Positions 11,167 through 63,363 are shown, counted from the first letter of the stretch. The stretch: DNA of 64,000 bases from Candidatus Daviesbacteria bacterium RIFCSPLOWO2_01_FULL_39_23 (GCA_001776935.1 MFDN01000015.1:30130-94129); one strand, 5' to 3'. Translations and numbers: made by a program. Notes: a model not told the origin generated them from the letters alone.

Positions 11167-12014
11167 ATATTAAATACGCTTTTAGCATTTTGGGTAGTTT
11201 GACTGGCTACTTCCTCAAAAGATACTCCTTTTAAATCAGCAATAAGCTCGGCGATTTCTTTTACAGATGAGGGTTCATTTCTTTGTCCGCGTTTGCTCTG
11301 GGGAGCTAAAAACGGCGAATCAGTTTCTAAAACAATCCTGTCCAAAGGCAATAATTTGACAGCTTCTCGCAAGTATTCATTTTTAGGATAGGTAATGTTG
11401 CCTGCAAAAGAAACTGTTAGATTAGTAGTATGTAGTATGTAGCTAGTATTATGGGAGAGACCGGAATAACAGTGTAGAATAGCAGATTGGTCCCCAAGTA
11501 TTTCAAGCGTATCGTCCCAGGCCTCGGAATTTTCGGGATCTTTTGATCGGTCGTCGCGGCAGTGGATTATTAAAGGAAGATTTAATTTTTTGGCCAAGTC
11601 TACCTGAGCTTGTAAGAGTTTTTTTTGTAAAACCTTAACTTCATCAATTGTTATAGATGGTGGAATAAAGCCGGGATTACTTTCAAAAAAATAATCCAGA
11701 CCACATTCTCCTATACCGACAACTTTTTTTGGGTTAGAAAGATAGATCTGTTCTAACTGCTGCGTATCATTTTTAAGAGTTTCATTAGAGATATACTTTG
11801 CTGCCTCATGCGGATGGATAGCTACGGTGGAGTACCCTTCGACTCCGCTCATGTCAAGTTTTTCGCAAATTTGAAGTGCTTCCCGGCTTTTTTCAATGTC
11901 TACTCCGACATTAATAATGGCAGTAATTCCGGCATCTTTAGCGCGTTGTATTACCAGGTCTAAATCGTTTTGGTAACTTTCCCAATATAAATGTGCATGT
12001 GTATCAATTAACAT
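11163..12014 (-). CDS. tatD: TatD-family metal-dependent DNase/hydrolase
   Basis: MLIDTHAHL start and the overall TatD fold. It contains an in-frame segment derived from the gtagtatgtag hairpin repeat (about nt 11418-11456). Confidence 0.85.
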   Translation of the reverse strand: MLIDTHAHLYWESYQNDLDLVIQRAKDAGITAIINVGVDIEKSREALQICEKLDMSGVEGYSTVAIHPHEAAKYISNETLKNDTQQLEQIYLSNPKKVVGIGECGLDYFFESNPGFIPPSITIDEVKVLQKKLLQAQVDLAKKLNLPLIIHCRDDRSKDPENSEAWDDTLEILGDQSAILHCYSGLSHNTSYILHTTNLTVSFAGNITYPKNEYLREAVKLLPLDRIVLETDSPFLAPQSKRGQRNEPSSVKEIAELIADLKGVSFEEVASQTTQNAKSVFNI

Positions 12015-15760: not shown

Positions 15761-18019
15761 CTATATTCCCACTATTTCAAAAGTGGAGCCGGCGGAATTT
15801 TTAGAAACCTCAATCCTGACCGGAAATTCTTCTTTTAATTCTTCAATGTGGGTGATGACTAAAATTTTTTCAAAGTCATTTTTTATTGTATCTAAAACTT
15901 CTACTAACCTTGCCCTGCCCGGAGCATCTTGCGTACCAAACCCTTCGTCGATTACTAAAAACTGAAGCCTTGCTCCGGCCCTATGGGTGAGTAATTTTGA
16001 TATAGCCAGTCTTATTGCAAAATTAACCCGGAAAGTTTCACCGCCTGAATAAAGTTCATAAGGCCGTTCACCCATTTCATCAGAGATGACAATTTCCAAA
16101 GTCTCAATAGTGCCGTATCCTTTTTCTCCTTCAGACAGCAGTACTTTGGTCTTGGTTTCTTTTTGGGTTTCAAGTTTTATTTTCATCCGTCCTTCAGTTA
16201 GTTTTTCCAACAACCTGTTTGCTTCATCTTCTATCTCAGGAATTGCATTTTCAATAATCATGGCCTGAATGCCTTTTTTACCAAAAGCCAAAGTCAGCTC
16301 GTCAAAAATTTGCTTGCTTTCTGTTAATTTTGTTTTTTCCAATAACTTGGTTTCATTTAATTTTATAAGTTGCTCGGACCTTGATACCAATTGTTTCGCT
16401 TCCCCGACTTTACCGGAAAGCTCTAAAGCTTTTTGAGATAGATCCTGTTTGGTTTGTTCCTCCGCTTTTAATTCATTTTGTATTTTTATCAAATGATTTT
16501 CATAAGTTTCCAGATTTTCCAATTCTTTTTGGTCTTTTAAAATTTGATTCTCTTTAGACTGATAGATTTTTTGTAAATCAGATAAAGCTTCCTGGTGGGT
16601 TTTTACTCCGGTAAGTGCCTGTTGCAGTTTAGTAAATTTTTCTGTAAAGCCTGAAAGCTTTTCAAGAATTTGAGTAATTTCAAAATAATTTTTAGTTTCT
16701 TCCTCAAGTATTTTGATGGCTCTTTCTTTTTCCTGAGCTATTTCAGATTCGGGTAATACAATCTCTTTATATTTTTTAATCGTTGACAGTAAAGTTGTTA
16801 TTTCCAATTCGTTTTTTCCGATTTGTTTTAAATTTATGCTTATTATTTCTTTGTTTTTTTCTTCATTGATCGGTTGCTTGCAGGTGGGGCAAATATCTTT
16901 TTTATTTTGCAAAGCACTGTTTTGAATTTGTAATTGTTCATTTCGCGTCTGCAGTTGTTTAGCCTGAAGCTCGATTTTTGATATAGCTTCTTGCCTTTTA
17001 TTTTCCCTCTCGGTTATAATTTTTTGAATATCTACCAGCTCATCTTTTACGATAATCAGTTGGCTTCTTTTTTCATCCAGTTTTTTCTTATCTTCCTGTA
17101 AGGTTAAAAGCTTTTGGTAATTTTTTTCAATGTCTTCTTTTTGGTCTAAGATAGTCTGAAATTCAGACTGGGCTTTTTGGTTTAATTCTATTTTTGTTTT
17201 TATATCAGCCAGTTCTATTTGAACTGAATCGATTTGTTTTTTCTTTTCCTCCAAAGATTTAATTTGTAAACTTATGCTTTCCTGTTTCTCGTTAATCTCT
17301 TTAATCAGGATTTCAACTTCCCTTAACTTGCTTTCAACTTTTTTGGATTCTTCCTGAGCTAAAGTTAGCGTTTTTTCCCTTTCTTCTTTTTGTGATAACT
17401 CGGTTTCAATCTCCAGGAGTTGGTATTCTAAAAGAGTCAGTTTTGTTTGAGCTTCTTTGGATTTTTCTTTAGCCTTTTCTTCCAGTTGGTCATAATGATC
17501 CAGTCCTAAGATATCTGCCAGTATTTTCTTCCGCTCAGTAGGTCCTTTAGTGGTAAATTCATCAGCATGTCCCTGACGAAGATAGGCAGAATTAGTAAAA
17601 GTTTCAAAAGTTAAATGAAGGGTGTCTATAATTTTTTGTTGGGTTGCTTTGATTGTTCCTTCGGTCAGATTATGCCCTGAGTGAACGGAGTGAGTCGAAG
17701 GGTTACTGCTCCAAAACTCAAGGTTTGTTGAACCTCCGCCTTTTTTAGACCGTTGCCGCTTTACTGTAAAAATATGTCCGTCAAGCTCAAAAGCAAATTC
17801 TACATTCATCTTTTCAGCTCCTAAATGGATTAGATCATCTGAAGAATCCCCGGCCCTGGATGTACCCCAAATGCACCAGGTTATGGAATCAAGCAAAGAG
17901 GATTTGCCGGCTCCGTTTAGACCGGAAATCGCTGCCAGTTTAAATTTTGTAAAGTCTAGCTCCCGAGGACTTTCGCCGTAGGAAGTAAAGTTTGATAATT
18001 TAAGTTTAACCGGTATCAT
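15761..18019 (-). CDS. sbcC: SbcC/Rad50-family DNA repair ATPase (SMC-like). The N-terminal extension to 18091 is probably spurious and runs into a repeat element.
   Basis: MIPVKLKLSNFTSY...GLNGAGKSSLLDSI Walker A; long coiled coil; CPTCKQP zinc hook; C-terminal signature and D-loop (LVIDEGFG). Confidence 0.85.
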   Translation of the reverse strand: MIPVKLKLSNFTSYGESPRELDFTKFKLAAISGLNGAGKSSLLDSITWCIWGTSRAGDSSDDLIHLGAEKMNVEFAFELDGHIFTVKRQRSKKGGGSTNLEFWSSNPSTHSVHSGHNLTEGTIKATQQKIIDTLHLTFETFTNSAYLRQGHADEFTTKGPTERKKILADILGLDHYDQLEEKAKEKSKEAQTKLTLLEYQLLEIETELSQKEEREKTLTLAQEESKKVESKLREVEILIKEINEKQESISLQIKSLEEKKKQIDSVQIELADIKTKIELNQKAQSEFQTILDQKEDIEKNYQKLLTLQEDKKKLDEKRSQLIIVKDELVDIQKIITERENKRQEAISKIELQAKQLQTRNEQLQIQNSALQNKKDICPTCKQPINEEKNKEIISINLKQIGKNELEITTLLSTIKKYKEIVLPESEIAQEKERAIKILEEETKNYFEITQILEKLSGFTEKFTKLQQALTGVKTHQEALSDLQKIYQSKENQILKDQKELENLETYENHLIKIQNELKAEEQTKQDLSQKALELSGKVGEAKQLVSRSEQLIKLNETKLLEKTKLTESKQIFDELTLAFGKKGIQAMIIENAIPEIEDEANRLLEKLTEGRMKIKLETQKETKTKVLLSEGEKGYGTIETLEIVISDEMGERPYELYSGGETFRVNFAIRLAISKLLTHRAGARLQFLVIDEGFGTQDAPGRARLVEVLDTIKNDFEKILVITHIEELKEEFPVRIEVSKNSAGSTFEIVGI

Positions 18020-18029
18020 AGTATCTTTT

Positions 18030-18136
18030 GTCATCCTGATGGTCCATTGGACCAGAAGGATCTCTTGTGAATACAAGTTCTTCTGAAACAAGTTCAGAGA
18101 TTCTTCGGGTCAAAGTTTTGACCCTCAGAATGACAG
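18030..18136. repeat. MITE-like element, family A copy 1 (about 107 bp), with TIRs gtcatcctga / tcagaatgac and internal palindromes
   Basis: Terminal inverted repeats and a core gaaggatctct...cttctgaaacaagttcagagattcttcgg shared with the copy at 24252-24354 (opposite orientation). Intergenic between sbcD and sbcC. Confidence 0.8.
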
Positions 18137-18142
18137 TTTCCT

Positions 18143-19336
18143 TTAGTTTTCCAAAAGTTGTGCAGCATATTGTTCAAGTAATTTTTGTTTTTGGGGTGTA
18201 TATTTTTTACTTTCAAAATATTTTTTTAGTGCTTGCAAAGGGGTTAAGCTTTCTACCTCAATATCAAGTCTTTTCCTTTCAACTTTTTCAACATTTCTTG
18301 AGATTCCGGCTATAAAATTGGCACTGCTTAAAGATTTTTTAACCAAATCCATTTTTATTTCCTCTTCGCATTCTGCAGGAATATTTATGATGACCCGGAC
18401 GATCTTATCTTCTATTTTGTTTTTTTTGATCTGATCAAGAATGGTTTGGTTTGGGTCAGCATCCTTGGGATCCAAATTAATGCTGATAGTTAAAAATTGC
18501 CTGGCGTTGGTGGGTAGAAACTGGAATTGGCTTTTCCATCCAGTAGACCTCGCAGGTTTAATGCGTGCAACCTGCGAGGTCGGTAATATCTCTAATAAAC
18601 AAATTCCTTTTTCTTCTTTTTCTTCTCCAAAATCTATCCTTTGTGGGGAGCCGGAGTAAACAATCAAAGGAGTGTCGCCTGGTTTTGATAAAGTCTGATG
18701 CTTGTGAATATGTCCAAGCGCAACATAAGCCAATCTTTTATCCTGTATTAAAGGAAGGGGGATAGTTACCTCATTTGCAATAGCCATGCCTTTTTCGCTG
18801 CCAAATTCTGCTCCAACCACTTCTGCATGGGATAAGAGTATTGCAGGGGAATCAGGGCTGATTTTTTCATACAGCAGTTTTAATTTTTCTGCCACATCTT
18901 TGTAGTCATTTTTATGAAGCCAGGGTAAGGTCACTATTTGCAAAGCGCCTGATTTTGTTGGGACAGATAATAATTCCGGTTTTCTGGAGACCCAGACATT
19001 GTCAATTTCTAAGGCTGAGTAAATATCCAAAGTATTGGCTTTTCCTTCGGCATTCGGGGTATCATGATTACCCACTACTAAAATAACCGGAATCTTTTTG
19101 GCCATTTTGGCAATTCTTTCCCCAAAACCTCTTTGCTGGGTTGGGTTGGGGTCGCGGGTTTTATAGGCATCCCCGGCAAAGACTACCGCATCCACATTTT
19201 CTTTAAAGGCAGTATCTACGATAAAATCAAAGGTATTAAAAAAATCAAGCAGTCTGGTAGAAAGGCCGGTTTCAGGATCCAACTTGGCATAATTTTCCAT
19301 CCCAATATGCAGATCAGAAAAATGCAGTAGTTTCAT
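18143..19336 (-). CDS. sbcD: SbcD/Mre11-family nuclease (calcineurin-like phosphoesterase)
   Basis: MKLLHFSDLHIG, GDAYKTRDP and GNHD motifs. The ORF extends 8 codons further upstream (to 19360). Confidence 0.85.
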   Translation of the reverse strand: MKLLHFSDLHIGMENYAKLDPETGLSTRLLDFFNTFDFIVDTAFKENVDAVVFAGDAYKTRDPNPTQQRGFGERIAKMAKKIPVILVVGNHDTPNAEGKANTLDIYSALEIDNVWVSRKPELLSVPTKSGALQIVTLPWLHKNDYKDVAEKLKLLYEKISPDSPAILLSHAEVVGAEFGSEKGMAIANEVTIPLPLIQDKRLAYVALGHIHKHQTLSKPGDTPLIVYSGSPQRIDFGEEKEEKGICLLEILPTSQVARIKPARSTGWKSQFQFLPTNARQFLTISINLDPKDADPNQTILDQIKKNKIEDKIVRVIINIPAECEEEIKMDLVKKSLSSANFIAGISRNVEKVERKRLDIEVESLTPLQALKKYFESKKYTPQKQKLLEQYAAQLLEN

Positions 19337-19402
19337 GGTTGGATTATAATCAAGCAGCAAACATTTGACAAATGACCTATAAGATAATAGAATTCAAAAA
19401 TT

Positions 19403-20368
19403 GTGGAAAAAGTTTCAGGAATGGTTAAAAAATTTAAAGAGACTTTTGGAGATGCACCGGAACTTAAAAAACCTTGGACCAGAGGCAAATACTCTGTGCC
19501 GCTCAAGTTGAGAGATATCCACTATAGAGACTCTCTTCCATTCGCAAAGTTTGAGGGAATTAGCGGGAAAGAAGATGATGGAGTTTTGAAGGTCAGGGTT
19601 GACTATGCTGGTAGTTTGGATTTAAGAAGAGAGCAAGCTTTTATTAAGAGTGGTACCCAATTTACTCTGAATTATGTTGACATCAGGTTTAATACAGGTC
19701 CAGTGGACATTATTTATTCTGCAAAGTATGACCATCTTATTGAAAATTCCTATACAGACGAAAGAGCTTGGCCATATTTTTCGCGTGAGCTACTAATTCA
19801 ATTTACAGGAAGACGGGACATGCCGTTGGCTATGGCTGAATATTTTAGTAGCAACAGGAGGATTCAGTACGCACTATATATGACCTGCGGTGAATTTGGT
19901 GATTTACAGGCCTCTCTTGGGGCTCAAGCTGGGGAAAAAGATGACTCTGGACTGGGGTTTGCCAAAGTAGATATCGGTGCTCTTCCCGGTGCTCATATAC
20001 AAGAGTTAAGGAACAGCGCAGATAATATAAAGACTGAAACATCACCCAAGCCTATTCCTATAAATGGAGTTCCGATGAATATTGACGACTCTCCTTATAT
20101 ATACCGGGTTTTACATAGTCAAGACCACCAGGAGTGGGGACAGGGTAGGTTAGCGTTATCCAGACTGCATTTTGAAACAGGATCGGTGATGATGTTGTCG
20201 GTACCTGAGTGTGTAAATCAGCATGAATACATGAGTTATATGATAGGCGATCAATGGAATGATATTTTACACAGATATCCTGTGAGATTTGTAACAGTGG
20301 AGAGTGGGAAACCTCGACAATGGTTGCATACTTTTGGTAGAGACGATAAACTTTTAGAAGTTAGATAG
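19403..20368 (+). CDS. Hypothetical protein (321 aa), GC-richer than the surrounding sequence
   Basis: Clean ORF with no TM segments and no recognisable motifs; lies immediately upstream of the duplicated-pepP/TA cassette. Confidence 0.5.
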   Translation: MEKVSGMVKKFKETFGDAPELKKPWTRGKYSVPLKLRDIHYRDSLPFAKFEGISGKEDDGVLKVRVDYAGSLDLRREQAFIKSGTQFTLNYVDIRFNTGPVDIIYSAKYDHLIENSYTDERAWPYFSRELLIQFTGRRDMPLAMAEYFSSNRRIQYALYMTCGEFGDLQASLGAQAGEKDDSGLGFAKVDIGALPGAHIQELRNSADNIKTETSPKPIPINGVPMNIDDSPYIYRVLHSQDHQEWGQGRLALSRLHFETGSVMMLSVPECVNQHEYMSYMIGDQWNDILHRYPVRFVTVESGKPRQWLHTFGRDDKLLEVR

Positions 20369-20424
20369 CCTTCCCTTTGAGCGGAAAAATCTGAGAAATT
20401 AGTATTTTTGGTAGAATAGGGTTC

Positions 20425-20541
20425 ATGTTTAAGCAACGAATTCAGCAGGTTAGACAAAAACTTTCAAAACAAAAACTGGATGCAATTTGGATTTGTGATG
20501 TTTCCAATATTTGTTACCTGACCGGTTTTTCCACACCTTGA
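20425..20541 (+). pseudogene. Remnant 5' fragment (38 codons) of an Xaa-Pro aminopeptidase gene, a diverged duplicate of the start of the intact gene at 21355
   Basis: MFKQRIQQVRQKLSKQKLDAIWICDVSNI... matches the N-terminus of the 21355 gene (MFKQRIQQVKQKISKAKLDAIWICDVSNI...) at about 84% nt identity, then terminates. Upstream non-coding sequence is also duplicated. Confidence 0.75.
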
Positions 20542-20575
20542 TTTTTGTACAAATTTGTTCTAAAATGTACGTATT

Positions 20576-20878
20576 ATGACACAAGTAATGAAAGCCTCAG
20601 ATGTAAGGCAAAACTGGAGTAAACTGCTTAATAAAGTATACCGTAATCAAACCCGCCTGGTAGTGGAAAAAAGCGGAATTCCGGTCGCTGCCTTAATCTC
20701 AACAGAAGATTTAGACCGCTTGACAAAATTAGAAGAGCTTAGAGAAAGAAATTTTTCTGTTCTTGATGAAATCGGTGAGAAATTCAAAAATGTGCCTGCG
20801 GAAGAGATTGAGCAAGAGGTTAACAAAGTCTTAGTTAAGATTCGGGCACAAAATCGTAGAAAATCTCCTGTTGCCTAA
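20576..20878 (+). CDS. Phd/YefM-family antitoxin
   Basis: Phd/YefM-like N-terminal segment (...RQNWSKLLNKVYRNQTRLVVEKSGIPVAALISTEDLDRL...); 100 aa; directly precedes the PIN gene. Confidence 0.75.
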   Translation: MTQVMKASDVRQNWSKLLNKVYRNQTRLVVEKSGIPVAALISTEDLDRLTKLEELRERNFSVLDEIGEKFKNVPAEEIEQEVNKVLVKIRAQNRRKSPVA

Positions 20879-20884
20879 ATCAGT

Positions 20885-21322
20885 ATGATATCCGCAGTCC
20901 TGGATGCCAATATAATTACCTCTGGTATTTTAGGATACCGCAATCCTGTCAGTATTCCAGGAGCAATACTTAGATTATGGCGGCAAGGTACTTTTATTCT
21001 TGCAACATCTAAACATATTCGTGATGAGGTAAAAGTAGCACTGAGCAAATCATATTTTAAAAAACATTTGACTATCCAGGAAATATCCCGCATACAAGCA
21101 CTTCTTCAATTCCAGGCAAAACAGACAGTTATTACTGAGGATGTACATGAAACTGCTACTCACTTTGAAGATGATCTGGTTCTTGCTGTGGTTGTCAGCG
21201 CAAAAGCCGACTATTTAGTAACCGGCGATGGTCCGCTACTTCGAAAAGTCGGTAACTCTTATCAGGGAGTCAAATTGGTCAATCCGAATGATTTTCTACA
21301 AATTCTTAAGCAGCAGAGTTAG
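20885..21322 (+). CDS. PIN-domain toxin (putative TA-system toxin, PIN family, TIGR00305-like)
   Basis: MISAVLDANIITSGIL start, conserved acidic residues and C-terminal ADYLVTGDGPLL, typical of this PIN subfamily. Confidence 0.75.
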   Translation: MISAVLDANIITSGILGYRNPVSIPGAILRLWRQGTFILATSKHIRDEVKVALSKSYFKKHLTIQEISRIQALLQFQAKQTVITEDVHETATHFEDDLVLAVVVSAKADYLVTGDGPLLRKVGNSYQGVKLVNPNDFLQILKQQS

Positions 21323-21354
21323 TTTGCTGTCTGTTTTTTGATAGAATTGATTTC

Positions 21355-22446
21355 ATGTTTAAGCAACGGATTCAACAGGTTAAACAAAAAATTTCGAAAG
21401 CAAAACTAGATGCGATTTGGATTTGTGATGTTTCCAATATTACCTACCTTACTGGTTTTTCCAATTTTTCAAAAGAAGAAAGAGAGGCATATTTGCTAAT
21501 CGGTAAGGATTTTCAATTTATTATTACAGATGCCAGGTATTCTGAGGCAGTAAGAAAAGAAATCCCTCATTTAAAACTTTTTGAAAGGTCTCATCAAAAC
21601 CCAACTGAAAAATTATTTGAAAGCTTAAAAAATAAAATAAAAGTTTTAGGGATTGAAGAAGATGAGTTAACAGTTTTAGAATATAAATCGTTAAAAAAGC
21701 ATTTTAAAAAAACAAAACATTTTAATTTAAAAACCAACCGTTTGATAAAAACTCCGGAAGAAATTAAAAAAATAGAAAAAGCATGCAAATTAGGTGATTT
21801 GGCATTTAAATATATTTTGAAAAAAATAAGGACAGGTATTTCGGAAAAGGAGCTTGCTTATGAATTGGAGAAATTCATAAAAGAAAATGGGGCAGAACTT
21901 TCATTTCCTTCAATTGTAGCTTTTGGTAAAAATTCTTCCGTTCCCCATCACCAAACAGGCAATACTAAACTGGAAGAAAAGCATGGACAGTTTGTTCTAT
22001 TAGACTTCGGAGTCAAGTTAGAAAATTATTGTTCAGATATGACCAGGACTGTTTTTTTTGGCAAACCTTCTAAAGAACAACAAAAGATTTATGAAACAGT
22101 TTTATCAGCCCAACAAAAAGCTGTTGACTATATAAACAAAACTTTAAAATCAGGTAAAAAAATTTGGGCTTCCAAAGTTGATATAGCAGCCCGGGATTAT
22201 ATTATTTCAAAGGGTTTTCCAACGATTCCCCACTCGCTTGGTCATGGCATAGGGTTGGAGGTACACGAGCATCCGTCGTTATCACCTAAAAGCAAAGAAG
22301 ATTTAAAAAGCGGAATGGTTTTTTCCATAGAGCCGGGGATTTATATACCAAACTTAGGCGGGGTCCGAATTGAAGATTTATTTGTTTTGGAAAATCAGCA
22401 ACTTCGGGCATTGACCGGCTCCTCAAAAGCGCTGATTATTATATAA
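21355..22446 (+). CDS. Xaa-Pro aminopeptidase (M24B family)
   Basis: M24 metal-ligand motifs: LDFG...DMTRT, HSLGHGIGLEVHE, and FSIEPG. Confidence 0.85.
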   Translation: MFKQRIQQVKQKISKAKLDAIWICDVSNITYLTGFSNFSKEEREAYLLIGKDFQFIITDARYSEAVRKEIPHLKLFERSHQNPTEKLFESLKNKIKVLGIEEDELTVLEYKSLKKHFKKTKHFNLKTNRLIKTPEEIKKIEKACKLGDLAFKYILKKIRTGISEKELAYELEKFIKENGAELSFPSIVAFGKNSSVPHHQTGNTKLEEKHGQFVLLDFGVKLENYCSDMTRTVFFGKPSKEQQKIYETVLSAQQKAVDYINKTLKSGKKIWASKVDIAARDYIISKGFPTIPHSLGHGIGLEVHEHPSLSPKSKEDLKSGMVFSIEPGIYIPNLGGVRIEDLFVLENQQLRALTGSSKALIII

Positions 22447-22453
22447 TGAATTT

Positions 22454-23071
22454 ATGGGTAAATGGGACAAGTTGGCTGACAGGCAAACTATTGACGAAAC
22501 AATTGAAAGCTTAAAGAAAAATGGCCTGGAGGCAATGTTCGTAAATGATGGTAAAGAAGCTAAAGAAAAGGTTTTGTCATTGATTCCTGCCGGGTCTGAG
22601 GTGATGACCATGACTTCTGTCACTTTAGATACCATAGGTTTATCAGAGGAAATTAACAAAACAGGAGGCAGTTTTAAGCCGGTCAGGGATAAACTTTATT
22701 CGATGGATCGAAAAAGTGAGGCCCAGGAAATGAATAAACTGGGGGCAGCGCCGCAGTATGTTTTAGGAAGTATACATGCAGTCACTCAGGCAGGGGAAAT
22801 AATGGTTGCTTCCAATACTGGTTCTCAATTACCTGCTTATTCTTATGGAGCACTAAAGGTAATTTGGGTAGTTGGAGCGCAAAAAATTGTCAAAAATTTA
22901 GATGAGGGTTTTAAGCGTATTTATGAGCATAGTCTAATACTGGAAAGCGAAAGAGCCAAAAAAGCATACGGCGTACCCGGTTCATCTGTAAATAAAATAT
23001 TAATTATAAACAAAGAAGTGCAACCGGGAAGAATGACTATTATTTTGGTTAACGAAGTATTGGGTTTTTAG
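22454..23071 (+). CDS. LUD-domain protein (LutC/YkgG-like, DUF162)
   Basis: Overall similarity to the lactate-utilisation LUD domain fold; 205 aa. Confidence 0.55.
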   Translation: MGKWDKLADRQTIDETIESLKKNGLEAMFVNDGKEAKEKVLSLIPAGSEVMTMTSVTLDTIGLSEEINKTGGSFKPVRDKLYSMDRKSEAQEMNKLGAAPQYVLGSIHAVTQAGEIMVASNTGSQLPAYSYGALKVIWVVGAQKIVKNLDEGFKRIYEHSLILESERAKKAYGVPGSSVNKILIINKEVQPGRMTIILVNEVLGF

Positions 23072-23583
23072 GCACGGTATAACCAGAAATTTTCTACTTT
23101 TTTATATGGTCTCCAATTTGGAAAGTGATAAGTCTGGGTAATTACAACAGCGCCTTTTTTTAACTCTTTCCGTAATTTTTCTTCTAATTTCTTAACTCCT
23201 TTATGTAATAAATAAATATAGACAATGTCCGCATCAGAATAGCTTCTGGCAAAAATATTTCCATGAAAAAACTTTACGTTCCCACATCGGAAGTGGGAAG
23301 CTGATTTCCAGCGAGAATACAAAACTCTAATCCAGGATTGTTCAATGCCGACTGCATCAGCTCCCAGTTTTGCTGCTGCAAAAACCACCCGACCGTCTCC
23401 GGATCCAAGTTCATAAAATTTCTTACCCTTTTTAGCGCCTGCAAACTTTAAGATTTTTCTAATATTTTCCATTTTGGTGGGAACATAAGGTGCATCAGTC
23501 CCGGCAAACCACGATAGAGCTATAAAACAGCCGATTAAGATGCCGCCTGAAATTATTAAAGTAATATCCATTTTATTTCCCAA
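23068..23583 (-). CDS. Class I SAM-dependent methyltransferase with N-terminal membrane anchor
   Basis: YELGSGDGRVVFAAAKLGA motif I (GxGxG) after a TM helix. Confidence 0.6.
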   Translation of the reverse strand: MGNKMDITLIISGGILIGCFIALSWFAGTDAPYVPTKMENIRKILKFAGAKKGKKFYELGSGDGRVVFAAAKLGADAVGIEQSWIRVLYSRWKSASHFRCGNVKFFHGNIFARSYSDADIVYIYLLHKGVKKLEEKLRKELKKGAVVITQTYHFPNWRPYKKVENFWLYRA

Positions 23584-24655
23584 GCAATTTTAGCAGAAAA
23601 ACCTTAAGCGGTGTCAGTCTATCTATAAAAGTAAATATCAAATATATTGGCCAATCAAAGACCATATCATAAGTTCCAATATTTTCAATTAATTTTCCCC
23701 CATATCCCTGCTTAAATTTATGAAATCCATACCACGGGTCTTTTTGGTTGGCATCAGGACCTAATGCTCCCCACATATCAAATTTTTTAAGCCCTAATTT
23801 TTTTCCTAATCTAATAGCTTCCCAGGCTACTAAATTATTTGTCATAACTTCAGGGTGTGTTTTAGAAGACCCGCCATAGGGATAATAGAGTGTGTCTTTA
23901 GAATTTAAAATCATCCAGGCAGTCAAGGGTTCATTCTCAAAATAGGCAATTAAGATATGAGCCATACCAGCTTCTTTTAAGGTTTCCCATGCTTTTTGAT
24001 GATAATTTTTATTGTGGCCATGATATCCCTGTCTTTTAGTGGTTTCAAAATATAATTTTAAATAAATTTTGAAAGCTTCATCATCAGTTCTGCTTTTAAC
24101 TTTTACTCCATGCTTTTGAGCAACCCGGATATTGTAACGGGTCTTTGGATGCATGTTTTTTAACAGCTCCTCTTCTGATTTTGTTAAATCAACAATAAAA
24201 TTATATTTGGTAAAGAGTGGCTTTGGTGATCTTATAAAACTTGAATCAGTGCTGTCATTCTGAGGTCGCTGTGGCGACCGAAGAATCTCTGAACTTGTTT
24301 CAGAAGTGCTCGCATTCGCGAGAGATCCTTCGGCTAATTTCCTCAGGATGACATTGGGTTCCACCTTGATAAAAGCACAGTTATTTTCCCTGCCGATTTT
24401 TTTTAAAGCTTCTGCCAGTTCTTTGTCCGGTGCCGGGCCTTTTGGCAGATAGCCCACACATTTATTAGTAAAAGGGATTTTATGTAAAGTCAGCTGAAAG
24501 GCTTTTATTAATTTACTGTTTTGGTAAAGGCCATACCTTAAAAGAGGGATTCCCAAAGATTTTCTAAATTCTCCCCATTCCCAGGACTGGATTACATGAG
24601 TAACTAATTTATTGTAAGCAGTTTTTTGCTTTGGGGTAATTGGCCGCAGATCCAT
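23573..24655 (-). CDS. FemAB-family peptidyltransferase (peptidoglycan interpeptide-bridge formation), carrying an in-frame MITE-derived insertion
   Basis: N- and C-terminal regions look FemAB-like. The central 35-40 aa low-complexity segment (…ASTSETSSEILRSPQRPQNDSTDSS…) is encoded by repeat element B. Confidence 0.7.
   Translation of the reverse strand: MDLRPITPKQKTAYNKLVTHVIQSWEWGEFRKSLGIPLLRYGLYQNSKLIKAFQLTLHKIPFTNKCVGYLPKGPAPDKELAEALKKIGRENNCAFIKVEPNVILRKLAEGSLANASTSETSSEILRSPQRPQNDSTDSSFIRSPKPLFTKYNFIVDLTKSEEELLKNMHPKTRYNIRVAQKHGVKVKSRTDDEAFKIYLKLYFETTKRQGYHGHNKNYHQKAWETLKEAGMAHILIAYFENEPLTAWMILNSKDTLYYPYGGSSKTHPEVMTNNLVAWEAIRLGKKLGLKKFDMWGALGPDANQKDPWYGFHKFKQGYGGKLIENIGTYDMVFDWPIYLIFTFIDRLTPLKVFLLKLLGK
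24252..24354. repeat. MITE-like element, family A copy 2 (about 103 bp), inserted in frame inside the FemAB-family CDS
   Basis: TIRs ctgtcattctgagg / cctcaggatgacat. The core cgaagaatctctgaacttgtttcagaag is the reverse complement of the core at 18030-18136. Internal palindromes ggtcgc...gcgacc and ctcgcattcgcgag. Confidence 0.8.
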
Positions 24656-26148: not shown

Positions 26149-26847
26149 CTAATCCATTAAATATATATCAATGAAGCGCGCCCTCCAACCGGCAGTACGG
26201 GCATCTTCAAACCCCAAATCAATAATGTTGCCCTTTATGGCTCCGCCGGTATCGCCTGCAATGGCCATTCCATACCCCGGTATATAAACTTTACTTCTCA
26301 TCTTAATAACTTTCGGGTCAACGGCAATTACGCCTTTGCCGGCTTTCATTCCAATGGCTGTCCATTCATCGCAACCTTTACACCTTGAATCATAGTGGGT
26401 GGCATAAACTCTCATCTTTTTCCAATATTTAATTTCTCCATCTTGAACTTGCAGGGTTTTCCAGATAATTTTGGTACCCCGTAAAATTTTTTTATCTTTT
26501 GCGGGAATTGTTTCTAAGGAGACAAGTTTTCTTTCAAACTCTTTCCCGTCTTTTGAGTAGGTGACTTTAAATATTTTTGTTTTCTTGCCGTCTTCGCCTT
26601 CTTCTAAGATTTTTTCTTCTCCGGCTTCGGTTTGGGGATCATCCTCAAAAATGACTTTTTTTAAAATAATCTCAGTTTCCTCATGTAGTTTTTCCGTAAA
26701 AGAAGAATGGGTTGTAATTGGTTGATTCATTGGCAGAGTCTGAGTAAGAGAAGGAGAAGTTTCCCCGAGTACAGCAGGAGTCTGCCAGAAGGTTTTGGCA
26801 AAAACTGTAAGAGCTATTATTAAAAGGGCTCCTAAATATCTTTCCAT
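26149..26847 (-). CDS. Secreted G5-domain plus 3D-domain protein (YabE/MltA-C-like cell-wall binding/lytic protein)
   Basis: G5-like segment (EEGEDGKKTKIFKVTYSKDGKEFERK) and a C-terminal 3D domain with conserved Asp residues (VIAVDPKVI...GDTGGAIKGNIID). Confidence 0.7.
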   Translation of the reverse strand: MERYLGALLIIALTVFAKTFWQTPAVLGETSPSLTQTLPMNQPITTHSSFTEKLHEETEIILKKVIFEDDPQTEAGEEKILEEGEDGKKTKIFKVTYSKDGKEFERKLVSLETIPAKDKKILRGTKIIWKTLQVQDGEIKYWKKMRVYATHYDSRCKGCDEWTAIGMKAGKGVIAVDPKVIKMRSKVYIPGYGMAIAGDTGGAIKGNIIDLGFEDARTAGWRARFIDIYLMD

Positions 26848-29808
26848 TTAAGCATTTAACCAGTCATCATCATCTTTCGATATTTTATCAAGGTTTTCTT
26901 CGTCGCTGTAGCTGGCATTACTGATAATCAGTTCTTGTGGAATATCTGCCAAAAATCTGGATACTAAATTATTTGACCTGGTGCCAAAATATAACCTCTG
27001 TCTGGCGTAAGTTAAATATAGTTTCTCTTTAGCGCGGGTGATTCCGACATAGCAAAGTCTTCTTTCTTCCTCGAGTTCGCCAGTATCCAACATAGCGCGG
27101 GAGTGGGGGAATAAGCCTTCTTCCATGCCTACCATAAAAACAATCGGGAATTCCAGACCCTTAGCAGAGTGAAGAGTCATTAAAGTGACTGCGTCAGATT
27201 GCTGTTGACTGTTGGCTTTTCGCTTTCGGCCGGGAATATTGCCATTTTCAACCAGAGCAACATTTTCTAAAAATTCCACCAAATCAGGAAATTCTTCGGC
27301 TACAGACCGGAGCTCCTTAACGTTTTCTATACGCATTTTACCCTCTTCGGTGCCGTTATCAAGATATGCCAAATATCCTGTTTTGGTAAAAATTAAATCC
27401 AGTAAATCTAATGTTGTGTATTGATGAAGCTGCGTGGATATTTCTTCATAAAGTTCGGTAACTTTTACAAGCCTTCCTTTGCCTATTTTTTCAGCCCTTT
27501 TTAATGAAATCGAATCCTTAGGATTTTGCAATAAGCGCAGATATGCTAAAACGTCCTTTATTTCCTTTCTCTGGTAAAAGCTTACTCCGCCGACCAATTT
27601 ATATGGCATTCCGGCCTTTAAAAATTGTTCTTCTAGGGATCTTGATTGAGCATTGGTCCGGTAGAGAATGGCAAACTCAGACAGTTCTTTTATATCTTTG
27701 AGTTTGCTAATGGAGGATATGATAAAAAGAGCTTCTTCAACTTCATTTCTCACCTCAACTATTTCTATCTTTTCTCCGCCCTCTTTTTTGGTCCAAAGTT
27801 TTAAGACAGGATGGGATTTATTTTTGCAAATAATCGCATGGGCAGCGTCCAAAATATTTTGAGTGGAACGGTAATTTTGTTCAAGATTAAAAACCTTTAC
27901 CTGCGGATAATCTTTTTGAAAATTGACTATATTTCTAAAATCAGCTCCCCTGAAGGAATATATGGAATTATGTACAATGATTCCATTAGCAGAATAATTA
28001 TGCAGAGTATCTATATCCAGATCATAAACTTTTCCAACATAGTCCTCATGAGAAACTGAAATAACCTCATCAAGAATGATTCGATCTTTTTCTAAAATTC
28101 CAATTTCCATAGTTTCTCTAAGATGACTAATAGGGGTAAATAAAAACTTTTTATTATCAACAATGAAAGCAGAATGGTTAATAGTGAGTCCGCCGCCATC
28201 CAAAGCAATCTTTTCTGCTAGAGATAAAGCATTTTCATAACCCCAATGACAGGTTTCAATTCTCCATGTATCTCTATTGCCCGCTCTGGTAAAATGCCCC
28301 AGTTCATGAAGACTCTTCTGCAAGTTCTGGTTGGAAGTGTTAATTGAGACTCTGTGGCCACACCATGGACTTTTTAAAGTAGGCCGTTTATCGCTAAAAA
28401 GAGTGAAATGGACTAATTGTCTATCTGGAGCAATTTTACTTGCTACACCTTTAGGATGATGATGGGGATAGTCTTCAAACAGGTAGTAATCTTTGAAAAT
28501 TGTTTTTACCCGTTCTCTGGTATCTATAGAGTCAAAAAGTTTGTTAATTTGTTTTTGAGTAATAACCATATTACGGCCGCCGGTAGAGAAAACCATACTG
28601 GGGATTCCGTATTGAACTATAAACCACTGTTCCCAATAATTTGCTTCTGCTCTATCCTTGCAAACTTTTAAAATCCACATTTTATCTGCGCTCTCTTGAT
28701 TTGAACGCACCAATAAGCCAATTTGAGTTTTTCCTTTCTCTGGAGTTCTGAAACTTTTAGCAATTCCAATACGATAGCCTTTATCTTTTCGAAACATAAG
28801 GTATACATAGTAGCAATTTATTTTTAAGCTTAAACGGGCAAAGGTAATATGATTTGGGGTTGCTTTTAAAGTTTTACCGGATTTAGTTTTAATTGTGAAT
28901 AATTTACCTTGGAAATTAGAAATTCTTATTTTTTCAATCGGAACTTTGTGAATTCCTCCGCGACCAGCAGCAGCTATTACCAAATCGTTTCGTTTGAGGT
29001 CCTTAATAGATTTTAATCCAGTTGGAGTTGAAATTTTGGTATCAGGAGGGAGACATTGGCTGGCATCCCCTACAACACAAATATTTTGATGGCGTTTGGA
29101 TAAATATTTACTTATTAAATATTGGGCCGGATTGGTATCCTGGTATTCATCAATTAATATGTAGCGGAACTGGATCTGGTAGCGGGTTAAAACAGAGGGT
29201 TCGGTTTGAAAAAGCCGGATGGTTTTAAGAAGAAGGTCATCAAAATCCAAAGCCTGATTTTTCTCCAGGATTTTTTGATACTCAAGATAAATTTTAGCAA
29301 CAATTTCCTGGAAATATCCGCGGGCGTATTGAGGATATTCCAAAGAAGAAATCAGTTCGTTTTTAGCGCCGGAAATGGTGGAGCGGACAGAGTAGGGGGA
29401 AGTTTTTTGGGGGGAAATATTTAGATTACTCATGGCCTCTTTTACAGCATCCAAAGCATCTCCTTCATCATAAATTGCAAAACCGGGCGGCAGTCCCAGG
29501 ACTTTGCCGTCGCGGCGCAGTACCCTGGCACAAAAGCTATGGAACGTTCCCATAACCGGTTTGGCATTAAAATCCCCAAGCAGTTTCTTGATTCTTTCCA
29601 TCATTTCTCCGGCGGCTTTATTGGTGAATGTCAGGCACAGGATATTGTCAGGCGGAATACTCTTTTCAGATATTAAGTGAGCTACTTTATAAGTCAAGAC
29701 TCGTGTTTTGCCTGAGCCTGCTCCGGCCATAATCAGGGTTGGACCTTCAGTGGTCTGCACGGCTTTTTGTTGGTCTGGATTTAAATCATCTAGTAAAGAA
29801 GAGGGCAT
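26848..29808 (-). CDS. pcrA: UvrD/PcrA-family ATP-dependent DNA helicase interrupted by an intein
   Basis: Walker A AGAGSGKT. Motif III VGDxxQ is split from SIYSFRGA by a 363-aa insertion starting with Cys and ending ...VHN|S. Helicase motifs V/VI are present in the C-terminal extein. Confidence 0.85.
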   Translation of the reverse strand: MPSSLLDDLNPDQQKAVQTTEGPTLIMAGAGSGKTRVLTYKVAHLISEKSIPPDNILCLTFTNKAAGEMMERIKKLLGDFNAKPVMGTFHSFCARVLRRDGKVLGLPPGFAIYDEGDALDAVKEAMSNLNISPQKTSPYSVRSTISGAKNELISSLEYPQYARGYFQEIVAKIYLEYQKILEKNQALDFDDLLLKTIRLFQTEPSVLTRYQIQFRYILIDEYQDTNPAQYLISKYLSKRHQNICVVGDASQCLPPDTKISTPTGLKSIKDLKRNDLVIAAAGRGGIHKVPIEKIRISNFQGKLFTIKTKSGKTLKATPNHITFARLSLKINCYYVYLMFRKDKGYRIGIAKSFRTPEKGKTQIGLLVRSNQESADKMWILKVCKDRAEANYWEQWFIVQYGIPSMVFSTGGRNMVITQKQINKLFDSIDTRERVKTIFKDYYLFEDYPHHHPKGVASKIAPDRQLVHFTLFSDKRPTLKSPWCGHRVSINTSNQNLQKSLHELGHFTRAGNRDTWRIETCHWGYENALSLAEKIALDGGGLTINHSAFIVDNKKFLFTPISHLRETMEIGILEKDRIILDEVISVSHEDYVGKVYDLDIDTLHNYSANGIIVHNSIYSFRGADFRNIVNFQKDYPQVKVFNLEQNYRSTQNILDAAHAIICKNKSHPVLKLWTKKEGGEKIEIVEVRNEVEEALFIISSISKLKDIKELSEFAILYRTNAQSRSLEEQFLKAGMPYKLVGGVSFYQRKEIKDVLAYLRLLQNPKDSISLKRAEKIGKGRLVKVTELYEEISTQLHQYTTLDLLDLIFTKTGYLAYLDNGTEEGKMRIENVKELRSVAEEFPDLVEFLENVALVENGNIPGRKRKANSQQQSDAVTLMTLHSAKGLEFPIVFMVGMEEGLFPHSRAMLDTGELEEERRLCYVGITRAKEKLYLTYARQRLYFGTRSNNLVSRFLADIPQELIISNASYSDEENLDKISKDDDDWLNA
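27967..29055 (-). mobile_element. Intein (363 aa) inserted in helicase motif III of UvrD/PcrA
   Basis: N-terminal splicing block CLPPDTKISTP, C-terminal block ...GIIVHN followed by +1 Ser. The central region is large enough for an endonuclease domain, but no LAGLIDADG motif is seen. Confidence 0.75.
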
Positions 29809-46496: not shown

Positions 46497-47198
46497 TTAG
46501 CCTCTTGTAACTATACATTTAGGGCATCTTAAGGATTCCAGCTCAAAAATTTTGGCTTTTTCCTCAGATAGCTTAAATGTAATCTGGGATCCTTCATCCA
46601 CTTTCAATAAATCAGGGTTATTATCAAAAGATAGTGTGGCAGTTCCCCGTATTAATTTAAAAGTCACCTTATCGTTATCTTTAAAAAAGGAAGGAGCAGT
46701 TTTTTCAGTTGTATTATTAAAGGCAATCCCAAATCCGCTTTTGAAAGTTTTTCCTGTAATGCTTTTAAAATAACCTGTGGAGCCAAAAGGGGTTGATAAA
46801 ACTATGCCGTCTCCGATTAAGAGTTTTTCTTCTTGATTGGTCTTGAACCGAATAGTGTGAATAGGCGTTGCATTTCTTATTACAAAATCATTCAAGGCCA
46901 AAAGTTTTTGATAAAAAATTGTAGTCTCAAGTTTTGAATACTGCTTAATTTTTAGCCTGCCTTCTGCTAAGTTTTTTAGTAAAACTTCTTCTTTATGGTC
47001 AGGGCATTTTTTGCAAACAAGGCTGTTTCTGATAGGAAGCTTTGGAATGCCCGGATAAGTTCGCTCTGAAGAAAGCAGGGTGCCGTCTCCTCCGTAACTA
47101 ATGACAGCATCAGGATTTAATGCCGTTATCTCGAAGCCGAAACTTTTTACTAAATCTTCTATATCTTTGGAATTTTTACCAGTTAACAACACTTTCAT
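46497..47198 (-). CDS. nadK: NAD(+) kinase (short form)
   Basis: ISYGGDGTLL motif and the NDFVI / DG.V.STP.GSTGY regions. Confidence 0.75.
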   Translation of the reverse strand: MKVLLTGKNSKDIEDLVKSFGFEITALNPDAVISYGGDGTLLSSERTYPGIPKLPIRNSLVCKKCPDHKEEVLLKNLAEGRLKIKQYSKLETTIFYQKLLALNDFVIRNATPIHTIRFKTNQEEKLLIGDGIVLSTPFGSTGYFKSITGKTFKSGFGIAFNNTTEKTAPSFFKDNDKVTFKLIRGTATLSFDNNPDLLKVDEGSQITFKLSEEKAKIFELESLRCPKCIVTRG

Positions 47199-47253
47199 GG
47201 CCTAATGATACTATAAATTTTGCCAAAAAGTGCGTATACTGGGTTACATCATT

Positions 47254-47305
47254 TGTCATTCTGATCCGCCAGCAACTACGTAGCTGTGGGCGGATCAGAA
47301 TGCAG
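47254..47305. repeat. Miniature hairpin related to repeat family A (same TIRs, palindromic centre)
   Basis: tgtcattctgatccgcc-[agcaactacgtagctgtg]-ggcggatcagaatgcag; the TIR matches the family A ends (tgtcattctga / tcagaatgac). Confidence 0.65.
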
Positions 47306-47311
47306 AGGATT

Positions 47312-48550
47312 ATGAGTAAAACCTTATCTTTTCCGGCTCTAAGAGTGCCTGTTTTTAGAAATTATTTATTTGGAGCATTTATCTCCGAGATGGGGAATCA
47401 GATGCAGACAGTGGCTGTGGCCTGGCAGATTTATGAACTGACTAGAAATCCGCTTTATTTGGGGTTAATAGGTGTGGCAAATTTCGTACCCATCATGATT
47501 TTTTCCTTATTTGGAGGGTTGGCAGCGGACAAGTTAGACAGAAGAAAACTCTTAATTTGCAGTTTATTTGTACAAACCGTAATGGCTTTGATACTTTTTT
47601 ATCTAAGCCAAACAAATCAAATCAGTCCAACTTTAATTTATTTAATCCTGTTTTTTGTGGCAACTGCCCAGTCTTTTTCCGTTCCGGCCCGTTCCGCTAT
47701 TTTCCCAAATCTGGTGCCCAGGCAATTTTTTATGAATGCAGTTTCTTTGCATACCCTGCAATTCCAATCAGCCACCCTAATCGGTCCGGCTGTAGCCGGT
47801 TTTTTAATTGCGGGACTGAGTGTTTCTACAGTTTATCTGGTTAATGCATTCTCTTTTACATTTTTTATAGTCAGCGTTTTGTTAATTAAAGTTCCGGTTT
47901 TCAACCACGATAAAATAGTGGCATTTAATTTGAATTCTTTAAAAGAGGGTGTTAAGTTTGTGATTTCTACCCCGATATTATATTCCACGATGGTTTTGGA
48001 CTTTTTAGCTACCTTTTTTGGAACAGCTACCATTTTAATGCCGGTTTTTGCCAAAGATGTCTTACAGGTGGGGCCAGCCGGTTTGGGATTATTATATTCA
48101 GCTCCTGCCGTCGGCGGGGTGGCCGCAGGATTGATTTTATCTTCATTAAACAATATCAAAAATCAGGGAAAAATAATCCTGGGTGCTGTGTTGCTGTATG
48201 GGGCAGCCACCATAGGATTTGGGATGTCTAAGTTTTTACCATTATCAATATTTTTCCTGATTCTGGTAGGGCTTGGAGATATGACTTCCTCCATTGTCCG
48301 AAATACGGTAAGGCAGATGATAACGCCGGATCACCTAAGAGGCAGAATGGTTTCCATTATGAGGCTTTTCTTTCAGGGCGGGCCCCAGCTTGGGGAAATT
48401 GAAGCCGGATTTTTAGCCAAAGTCATTGGCGGCCCGGCTACGGTTGTAGTCGGAGGGGTAGGGGTAATCCTCATTACCTCCTTAATTGCCTGGAAAAATA
48501 AGAGTTTAAGGAATTTTCATCATGGAAAAGATGACAATTTAGTGACTTGA
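47312..48550 (+). CDS. MFS-family transporter. The ORF extends to 47120, but the upstream part overlaps the nadK 3' end and a hairpin repeat.
   Basis: 12 predicted TM helices; MFS-like loop GGLAADKLDRRK between TM2 and TM3. Confidence 0.7.
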   Translation: MSKTLSFPALRVPVFRNYLFGAFISEMGNQMQTVAVAWQIYELTRNPLYLGLIGVANFVPIMIFSLFGGLAADKLDRRKLLICSLFVQTVMALILFYLSQTNQISPTLIYLILFFVATAQSFSVPARSAIFPNLVPRQFFMNAVSLHTLQFQSATLIGPAVAGFLIAGLSVSTVYLVNAFSFTFFIVSVLLIKVPVFNHDKIVAFNLNSLKEGVKFVISTPILYSTMVLDFLATFFGTATILMPVFAKDVLQVGPAGLGLLYSAPAVGGVAAGLILSSLNNIKNQGKIILGAVLLYGAATIGFGMSKFLPLSIFFLILVGLGDMTSSIVRNTVRQMITPDHLRGRMVSIMRLFFQGGPQLGEIEAGFLAKVIGGPATVVVGGVGVILITSLIAWKNKSLRNFHHGKDDNLVT

Positions 48551-54481: not shown

Positions 54482-54566
54482 TATGTATTAAGTATTATGT
54501 ATTAAGGGTATGAAAACATTGAATTTATTATTTCCCATAATACTAACTGCTTGATACTTAATACTT
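54478..54566. repeat. Hairpin repeat family B copy (imperfect inverted repeat rich in gtattaagta / tattatggg)
   Basis: Left arm agtatgtattaagtattatgtattaaggg pairs with right arm cccataatactaactgcttgatacttaatac. Shares ttgatacttaatac with the copy at 63277-63354. Confidence 0.7.
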
Positions 54567-54597
54567 TCTCGGTATCGAAAGGAGAAAATAATTAAGT

Positions 54598-63278: not shown

Positions 63279-63354
63279 TATTAAGTAGTATGTAGTAAGT
63301 ATTATGGGTAGAAATCATTAAAATCCTTAATACCTAATACTTGATACTTAATAC
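63277..63354. repeat. Hairpin repeat family B copy
   Basis: agtattaagtagtatgtagtaagtattatggg pairs with ccttaatacctaatacttgatacttaatac. Lies immediately after the Lon-like stop codon. Confidence 0.7.
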
Positions 63355-63363
63355 AAAATATTT

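Follow-up and report, generated by a model that had tools for sequence, protein, structure and literature searches.

Palindromic elements in the window

A 64,000-nt stretch of the genome of Candidatus Daviesbacteria bacterium RIFCSPLOWO2_01_FULL_39_23 (MFDN01000015.1:30130-94129; hereafter the window) carries three members of a family of short palindromic repeats, which an earlier note had described as a MITE-like family (MITEs being transposable elements that are miniature and bear inverted repeats) with one copy inserted in frame within a gene of the FemAB family. Two elements of about 100 bp and a short relative are indeed present where that note had placed them. Copy 1 (18029-18135, + strand) is a full head-to-head dimer of 107 nt, TGTCAT...ATGACA, in the intergenic gap between sbcD and sbcC. 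Copy 2 (24253-24353, - strand) is a full dimer in the opposite orientation, lying inside a gene (23573-24655, - strand) whose open reading frame (ORF) of 360 amino acids (aa) and Pfam FemAB match identify a FemAB-family peptidoglycan bridge-formation transferase. The short relative (47254-47303, + strand), which can be written as TGTC + ATTCTGATCCGCC ... GGCGGATCAGAAT + G(-)C, had been taken for a 52-bp mini-version with the same terminal inverted repeats. Both end motifs are there, on what is a single long hairpin whose right tag is short by a 1-nt deletion. It is likely intergenic, between an ORF ending at 47198 (- strand) and a probable ATG at 47313 (+ strand), i.e. between divergent genes; a listed ORF at 47120-48550 (+ strand) overlaps it.

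The end motif GTCATYCTGA occurs five times in the window, always at one of the three elements, where 0.08 occurrences are expected, and the longest inverted pair of the whole window is formed by the 54-nt cores of copies 1 and 2, which are 89% complementary. Folding, which the earlier note had proposed as a check, was run on the elements as single-stranded DNA (ssDNA): copies 1 and 2 surpass their shuffles with z scores of -5.2 to -6.3, and the short element does likewise by 5-6 standard deviations. A generic finder for GTC followed by an AT-starting stem showed that all units of the window are tagged TGTC; its only additional matches in the window, tagged AGTC at 26608 and 28083, are at shuffle level and were rejected. 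Element density is highly variable among loci (loci and proteins compared here are designated by L and P numbers), with four units in the 64-kb window and 15 in 20 kb of L123.

Database and literature searches with these sequences gave little. No Rfam family was matched anywhere in the window at gathering thresholds, and near copy 1 the only match at E <= 1 was a chance one to mir-147. Literature searches with the end motifs as DNA strings returned only noise (e.g. bla-TEM primers), and those with peptide strings such as FAQNDK and VIASEAKQS gave no matches.

Two inverted hairpin units form each element

Copy 1 can be resolved into four consecutive hairpins. Unit A (18030-18062, + strand) has the tag (T)GTC, a stem ATCCT/AGGAT, a GA/GA internal loop, a distal hairpin TGGTCC-ATT-GGACCA and a tail CTC. 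Module B (18064-18077, + strand) is the hairpin CTTGTG-AA-TACAAG, and module C (18082-18098, + strand) is TCTGAA-ACAAG-TTCAGA, which in the gene-carrying form described below holds the TGA stop of a GIY-YIG gene. Unit D (18099-18134, - strand) repeats the plan of unit A with the tag (T)GTC, a stem ATTCT/AGAAT, a GA/GA internal loop and a distal hairpin GGGTCAAA-ACTT-TTTGACCC. The internal palindromes had been noted to vary between copies, and they do so through compensatory changes: module B of copy 2, CTCGCG-AA-TGCGAG, is two compensatory pairs away from that of copy 1.

A scan of metagenomes for the subfamily core GAAGGATCTCTYGYGAATRCRAG gave at least 119 stretches, with at least 107 full elements of which 87 are distinct, and the family counts below rest on these. 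The copies found in such collection scans bear out the proposal of a dispersed palindromic repeat family. Module A is (T)GTCATCCTGA, a variable hairpin and GAAGGATC; module B is the hairpin CTCGCGAATGCGAG; module C is a variable hairpin; and module D is GAGATTCTTC, a variable hairpin and TCAGAATGAC(A). Each half has the TGTC tag, the AT-starting stem, the GA/GA internal loop, the distal stem-loop and the CTC tail. Each element of about 100 bp is a head-to-head heterodimer, in which the (T)GTC-tagged hairpin units A and D enclose the small hairpins B and C.

What had been called terminal inverted repeats are thus outer arms that belong to a pair of inverted hairpin units. In 81 of the 87 distinct listed elements the 3' terminal arm finds a perfect partner within its own half, and only two of the 87 have ends that complement one another perfectly. 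Where the 3' arm takes one of the rare forms GGAAT, GGGAT or GCAAT, the local partner matches it in 10 of 10 cases while the 5' half remains ATCCT/AGGAT. Region C forms a perfect stem of 5 bp or more in 90% of the listed copies, as against 7% of shuffles, and does so with more than 20 stem variants (e.g. CTGAA/TTCAG, CTCAA/TTGAG, CGCAA/TTGCG and CCCAC/GTGGG). In some dimers (L123, L137 and L210) the halves are unrelated to each other, making them chimeric.

The flanks are conserved for a single base on each side: among 86 listed elements the -1 position is T in 76 and C in 7, the +1 position is A in 70, and the rest is unconserved. The target-site duplication that the earlier note had suggested looking for was not seen; 73 of these 86 elements lack any flank duplication, and the others have 1-4 nt of chance-like identity.

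A hot spot in the loop of a FemAB protein

The in-frame stretch of copy 2 (24254-24352, GTCAT...ATGAC) measures 99 nt and encodes the 33 aa VILRKLAEGSLANASTSETSSEILRSPQRPQND, residues 102-134 of the FemAB protein. The insertion is clean: the ORF stays open, the Pfam FemAB match is broken in two around the insert, and both flanks are collinear with 30 orthologues, as had been claimed. The length of about 35 aa given for the low-complexity loop becomes exactly 33 codons. By inspection of its sequence, copy 2 has one open reading frame of the six, which explains the frame used in FemAB. In an AlphaFold (AF2) model of the protein with a mean predicted local distance difference test score (pLDDT) of 80.7, residues 104-148 fall below 50, the sole long segment of low confidence, and confident beta-strands flank it at residues 93-100 and 151-156. 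The insert is therefore predicted to be a disordered or low-confidence loop.

The window comes from a contig of a groundwater metagenome (PRJNA268031). By named organism, its FemAB protein is closest to proteins of Candidatus Daviesbacteria, which falls in the Microgenomates group within the Candidate Phyla Radiation (CPR). Length variation across 31 orthologues is almost all confined to the insert loop. In P0002, P0003, P0004 and P0105, and also at L207, the loop holds the same subfamily as in the window. Further orthologues have other flavours, each starting V-I (GTCAT) and ending N-D (AATGAC), and several have just a short linker at the site. Some show a 5' remnant followed by a new element, as at L124, where GTCATTCTAAGCGCCTCATCT precedes a full GTCATTGCGAG...CTCGCAATGAC. 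The loop at L253 holds a dimer whose stems (8 bp) and loops (4 nt) are canonical, and that of P0017 (L254:10001-11008) has about 4.5 tandem copies of a heptanucleotide, (CTACCAA)n, which encode LLPTTNYQLPTT. At another FemAB loop, several orthologues have a further small variable insert (LPATNYQP-like).

Between the window and L122, the FemAB flanks are 78% identical by codon, with third positions 55-57% identical; the shared element modules are 100% identical, and their variable loops are unalignable. Identical modules amid diverged flanks point to either constraint at the DNA level or conversion from other copies.

Turnover between sbcD and sbcC

Copy 1 fills the gap from the stop codon of sbcD (18143-19336, - strand), which lies 7 nt from the element, to the start of sbcC (15761-18019, - strand), whose orthologues begin MIPVKL at 18019. 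In a metagenome gene call, sbcC measures 757 aa, reads MTKDTMIPVKL... and begins at about 18034, with the ATG that is part of the terminal ATGAC tag of the element; the repeat end is supplying an in-frame start for sbcC, whether spurious or alternative. The orthologous gap is empty in L252 (TAA-T-ATG). Elsewhere its occupants are a solo unit (L122), a chimeric dimer (L123) and a short dimer (L254), with the full A-B-C-D element in the window. The empty L252 site gave no clean boundary for the insertion point, because the occupied sites carry additional unrelated flank bases.

Distribution and amplification

The listed matches of a one-genome-per-species scan with GTCATYCTGAN{5,25}GAAGRATCTC span more than a dozen phyla, and share the same dimer plan with differing centres. 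Many copies were found in CPR metagenome contigs. Scans of viral contigs, one for the subfamily core and one for the GIY-YIG protein, found neither.

One 94-nt dimer occurs in near-identical form (0-1 nt apart) at 12 loci with unique flanks (L144, L147, L169, L178, L183, L193, L211, L212, L220, L224, L228 and L234, from metagenomes Ga0163210, Ga0163209 and Ga0208047). It is nested in an outer inverted repeat of about 13 bp, CAGGACTTACGCA...TGCGTAACTCCTG, making a composite element, and no target-site duplication is visible at any of the 12 loci. Near-identical copies at a dozen distinct loci argue for recent amplification, of which this composite dimer is evidence.

Copies translated within housekeeping genes

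The earlier note had proposed checking for other copies in frame within coding sequences. Of 107 listed full copies, 25 lie inside ORFs that are open for at least 40 codons on either side, in several frames and in both orientations; 22 of the 25 are in metagenome contigs, and the window, L122 and L123 account for three with their FemAB copies. For ten hosts the identity was confirmed with Pfam: a class I/II aminotransferase, two class I aminoacyl-tRNA synthetases (read as isoleucyl- and valyl-tRNA synthetases from their sequences), UvrC, ATP synthase gamma, a SpoU methylase, a LepA-like translational GTPase, an M1 aminopeptidase, DNA polymerase III delta' and succinyl-CoA ligase alpha. The same site of the M1 aminopeptidase is also occupied in an orthologue from a second locus. 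These hosts were found by a DNA pattern scan followed by ORF analysis; a protein-database search with a 95-aa concatenate of element-encoded peptides returned nothing useful and missed even the FemAB hosts.

Some proteins carry more than one such segment. The UvrC at L164 has two different ones (VILGSSDFTRIQ...ARMT and VILNVVKDLSRMR...QND), and a protein at L215 also has two (VILNEVKDL...AQND and VIASGAKQSQ...PRDD). At L199, an ORF spanning an element has an N-terminal part like DHH/RecJ and a C-terminal part like glycosyl-transferase-3/TrpD; the repeat may have mediated a fusion of genes here, or the ORF may be artefactual, running through a copy that is intergenic.

A GIY-YIG nuclease gene lies between the same modules

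At L231 and L241, both from the subfamily scan, modules A-B are followed after 8-9 nt by a GIY-YIG ORF (of 92 and 90 aa, respectively) and then by modules C-D. The TGA stop of this ORF is part of hairpin C (CTGAA-ACAAG-TTCAG, the C module of the window), within its 5' arm. The same bracketing of a GIY-YIG ORF, with slightly different ends, occurs at L003 (Saccharibacteria), where the ORF is a single-domain match to Pfam GIY-YIG (PF01541, E 5e-17). By named organism, the L231 protein is closest to proteins of Candidatus Daviesbacteria, with which it shares 72-74% identity. Two of their genes, P0136 and P0133, are flanked by A (with a B-like module) and by C and D. These Daviesbacteria cassettes (L248:2312-3383 and L244:2916-3321) stand antisense in ribosomal-protein operons, one between rpsJ (S10) and rplC (L3) and one beside rpsG (S7).

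P0136 shares 51% identity (E 9e-34) with an Omnitrophota protein that has a near-canonical NTS motif on its flank, NTS being the repeat that accompanies the ssnA genes discussed below, and the same Omnitrophota locus contains a canonical TGTCATTCCCGCGAAAGCGGGAATCCAC. Judged by its Pfam PF01541 match and its homology (51-63% identity) to an NTS-flanked protein, the nuclease would belong to the Ssn family, and we call its gene ssn. A search of PDB sequences with the nuclease found no solved relative, and NCBIfam gave just a sub-threshold match to a group I intron endonuclease.

Among the 119 listed subfamily loci, ssn is present in 10 and lies within 150 nt of the core motif in 7. Units flank it on both sides at L003, L231, L241, L244, L248 and L166. 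In about 1.7 Mb of fetched loci the GIY-YIG gene is the only gene found bracketed by units, in a survey that included no search for Y1 transposases as such.

Relation to described repeats

Two published systems resemble these elements closely. Di Nocera (2013; PMC3733652) described the CGTC-tagged repetitive extragenic palindromes (REPs), which have a tag CGTC, TGTC or CCTC and a stem starting AT, occur mostly as head-to-head dimers, and include dRS3 in Neisseria and the Rickettsia palindromic elements (RPEs) RPE-4 and RPE-6 of R. conorii; they also lie inside genes (in Rickettsia and Opitutus), adding 20-30 aa. No dedicated transposase was found for them, nor any REP-associated tyrosine transposase (RAYT) flanked by CGTC units. 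Chenal (2025; PMC11893778) showed that NTS (an extended dRS3, CGTCATTCCCGCGMAVGCGGGAATCYRG) and related SRM motifs flank ssnA genes, in a layout, NTS-ssnA-NTS, that is insertion-sequence-like and for which derivatives were not shown. SsnA, a GIY-YIG enzyme of 94 aa, binds the hairpin only when the DNA is single-stranded and cleaves just upstream of the tag, and such hairpin binding and ssDNA cutting by Ssn proteins was demonstrated in Neisseria and Wolbachia. In N. meningitidis, 2% of NTS lie in ORFs, as compared with 25 of 107 listed copies here, and an ORF-less dimer that keeps the leader and trailer hairpins of the gene is not described in that work.

The units studied here share with CGTC REPs (i) a TGTC tag directly 5' of a stem that begins A-T, T-A (arms ATCCT/AGGAT and ATTCT/AGAAT, with variants ATTCC, ATCCC and ATTGC); (ii) a short unpaired tail after the stem; (iii) many dispersed copies, some inside coding regions; and (iv) head-to-head dimers, of which there are at least 107 full ones, including both full copies of the window. 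They differ in that the dimer encloses the two extra conserved hairpins B and C, and in a CPR/Patescibacteria host, outside the five phyla of the 2013 list. With the NTS/SRM-Ssn system they share the layout of GTCAT, hairpin and ATC, and the placement of motifs on either side of a single-domain GIY-YIG gene of about 90 aa.

The resemblance to Rickettsia palindromic elements that had been proposed for copy 2 is apt. Those elements reportedly lie in frame in genes, where they are said to give additional surface peptide segments; RPE-1, described for Rickettsia, is longer than the present elements. The likeness lies in palindromic repeats in frame in unrelated housekeeping genes, and the class link goes through the assignment made by Di Nocera (2013) and extends only to RPE-4 and RPE-6. 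The earlier note was aware of no described equivalent for this lineage; CGTC REPs, dRS3 and the NTS/SRM-Ssn system are equivalents, although none for CPR was found in the searchable literature.

The repeat class, its occurrence in genes (Rickettsia, Opitutus) and its association with Ssn are thus already published. Not found in the searchable literature were the variant with a bipartite stem missed by the SRM pattern, its abundance in CPR, its frequent translation in housekeeping proteins, the exact correspondence of A-B-[ssn]-C-D to A-B-C-D, and the turnover at orthologous sites.

Origin and mobility of the elements

The elements probably belong to the CGTC-tagged REP/NTS/SRM class, and their ORF-less form probably derives from a cassette A-B-[ssn]-C-D encoding a GIY-YIG nuclease of about 90 aa. 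To this extent the MITE-like label was well chosen, for the elements are the ORF-less counterpart of a gene-carrying unit; the label misleads in that the partner gene encodes a GIY-YIG nuclease and not a transposase.

For the mobility of the elements we offer a mechanism more tentatively. Hairpins would extrude once the DNA is single-stranded, and an Ssn whose gene lies elsewhere in the genome would nick them at the borders of the element. Copies would then spread, or be replaced, as recombination or repair copies in the sequence of other copies, with a preference for sites already holding a unit, in a homing-like manner that leaves no target-site duplication. In-gene copies would survive only with an open frame, where the 29-35 extra aa could be tolerated as a surface loop, as in FemAB. 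Such nicking and copying would fit the missing duplications, the chimeric dimers, the stacked remnants and the turnover of sites. A bolder proposal, which we regard as possible and somewhat doubtful, is that the SRM-ssn-SRM cassette and the ORF-less dimers make up an autonomous/non-autonomous mobile pair whose sole enzyme is the GIY-YIG nuclease of about 90 aa, colonising and overwriting hot spots in CPR genomes by nicking and copying, including loops of essential proteins, with the DNA constrained while it is translated.

Several points weigh against derivation from an ssn cassette and against mobility of this kind. Neither the 64-kb window nor any of the syntenic loci L001 and L122-L124 has an ssn gene; the window has just two dimers and one monomer, and its copies may be fossils. 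No filled/empty polymorphism between close strains was found. We know of no covalent DNA intermediates formed by GIY-YIG nucleases, and of no transposition chemistry for Ssn. A head-to-head dimer would present one unit in cleavable orientation on each strand, and simple excision of a single strand is not obvious. The structure of the units also departs from the described classes. Known CGTC REPs have an 8-9-bp stem, a 4-5-nt loop and a tail of about CCA, whereas the window units have 5 bp, GA/GA and a variable distal stem (2-8 bp or more), with loops of 3-7 nt and a CTC tail; the canonical stem and loop are seen in the L253 element at the orthologous FemAB site. The window units also fail the published SRM pattern HGTCWYN(0-2)YYVSBRHN(0-5)WNVSBRGN(0-2)RNCYNB, which gave a single match in the window, at 1034 and at shuffle level, while missing the real units. 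The common GTCATTCTGAGCGAAGCGAAGAATC, L122 and L124 types fail it too; canonical NTS and eight sites in L117 match it. Finally, A-B-C-D could be ancestral, an empty site into which ssn homes, and not a deletion derivative.

This last point leads to the main rival, which we consider unlikely: the ORF-less A-B-C-D element, a host or selfish REP-like repeat, would be primary, ssn would be a homing-type gene inserted between B and C, and the window copies would be empty targets. It would be typical homing logic for a nuclease to recognise the repeat that it occupies. ORF-less copies far outnumber those bearing ssn, the gene being internal in 2 of the 119 listed loci and adjacent in 8, and in L155, L166 and L189 it lies beside a complete dimer, not within one. 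Against this, the stop codon lies in hairpin C and the ORF fills the exact B-C interval in three independent cassettes, as in a co-evolved unit, though this fits equally with insertion; and homing alone leaves the multiplication of ORF-less copies unexplained.

The four remaining readings each conflict with particular tests. Mobilisation in trans by an IS200/IS605-like tyrosine (HUH) transposase, as for REPs and REPINs, is improbable. The tagged hairpin, the head-to-head dimers, the missing target-site duplication and the intragenic copies are all common to GTAG-tagged REPs and REPINs, and the REPIN/RAYT system (Bertels & Rainey 2011) offers two further parallels: an inverted hairpin doublet that is non-autonomous and a single-copy enzyme gene flanked by repeats. 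The tag here is TGTC and not GTAG, the enzyme is a GIY-YIG nuclease in place of a tyrosine HUH transposase, no RAYT was flanked by CGTC units in the study of Di Nocera (2013), and the only bracketed gene found in the fetched loci, where no search was aimed at Y1 transposases or RAYTs, is that of the nuclease.

Conservation as a structured cis-acting RNA (terminator, attenuator or mRNA-stability element) is slightly less probable again. It would account for the strong covariation of the hairpins and for the place of copy 1 within an operon, between sbcD and sbcC. The copies occur, however, in both orientations to transcription, in coding regions and between divergent genes; they match no Rfam family and lack a U-tract; and the associated enzyme acts on ssDNA, not RNA (Chenal 2025).

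A classical MITE, i.e. an insertion sequence of the DDE-transposase type that is reduced by deletion and moves by cut-and-paste via terminal inverted repeats, is contradicted by the tests and very improbable. The size of about 100 bp and ends that resemble 10-bp inverted repeats recall one, as do ends in common with a longer gene-carrying element (A-B-[ssn]-C-D and A-B-C-D), where the gene is a nuclease and not a known transposase; against it stand ends that pair locally and almost never with each other, the rarity of flank duplication, the chimeric dimers, and the lack of any transposase gene seen between the ends.

Least probable, and already contradicted, is a native lineage-specific loop of FemAB whose likeness to copy 1 is incidental: orthologues at 67-81% identity do share the segment, an outcome that the earlier note would have read as native protein sequence, but that reading fails because the site is without the segment in other orthologues, or is occupied there by different flavours or by remnants, and because the same DNA modules are intergenic at 18029-18135 and lie inside at least 10 unrelated proteins; the predicted disorder of the segment also speaks against it.

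Other features of the window

A second, unrelated family of AT-rich palindromic repeats, AGTAGTATGTATTAAGTATTATG...CCCATAATACT...CTTGATACTTAATAC, occurs at 54473-54567 and 63272-63356, with a half copy at 11420-11456; its copies are imperfect hairpins of about 90 nt and are apparently intergenic. A 129-nt direct repeat (20405-20533 and 21335-21463, 86% identical) brackets a PhdYeFM-PIN toxin-antitoxin pair, the first copy lying upstream of the pair and the second forming the start of an M24 peptidase gene. The pair and an adjacent 321-aa ORF (19403-20368) are absent from the syntenic L122, and the region therefore looks like an insertion with a duplicated target. A UvrD-family helicase of 986 aa (26848-29808, - strand) has a Pfam Intein_splicing match, and its syntenic orthologues measure 633-679 aa; it probably contains an intein.

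Significance

By itself the window is ordinary, with three old copies and no nuclease gene. Two published questions now become directly testable: the enzyme missing for CGTC REPs (dRS3, RPE-4 and RPE-6) in the work of Di Nocera (2013), and the derivatives of the insertion-sequence-like NTS-ssnA-NTS layout that were not shown by Chenal (2025). If true, the mobile-pair reading would give CGTC REPs, and RPE-4 and RPE-6 in Rickettsia, their 'missing transposase'.

CPR housekeeping proteins, among them aminoacyl-tRNA synthetases, UvrC, a LepA-like GTPase, ATP synthase gamma, DNA polymerase III delta' and FemAB, commonly have translated repeat loops. These affect the annotation, alignment and structure modelling of CPR proteins, as illustrated by the sbcC start called inside an element, and they bear on ideas of how new protein segments arise.

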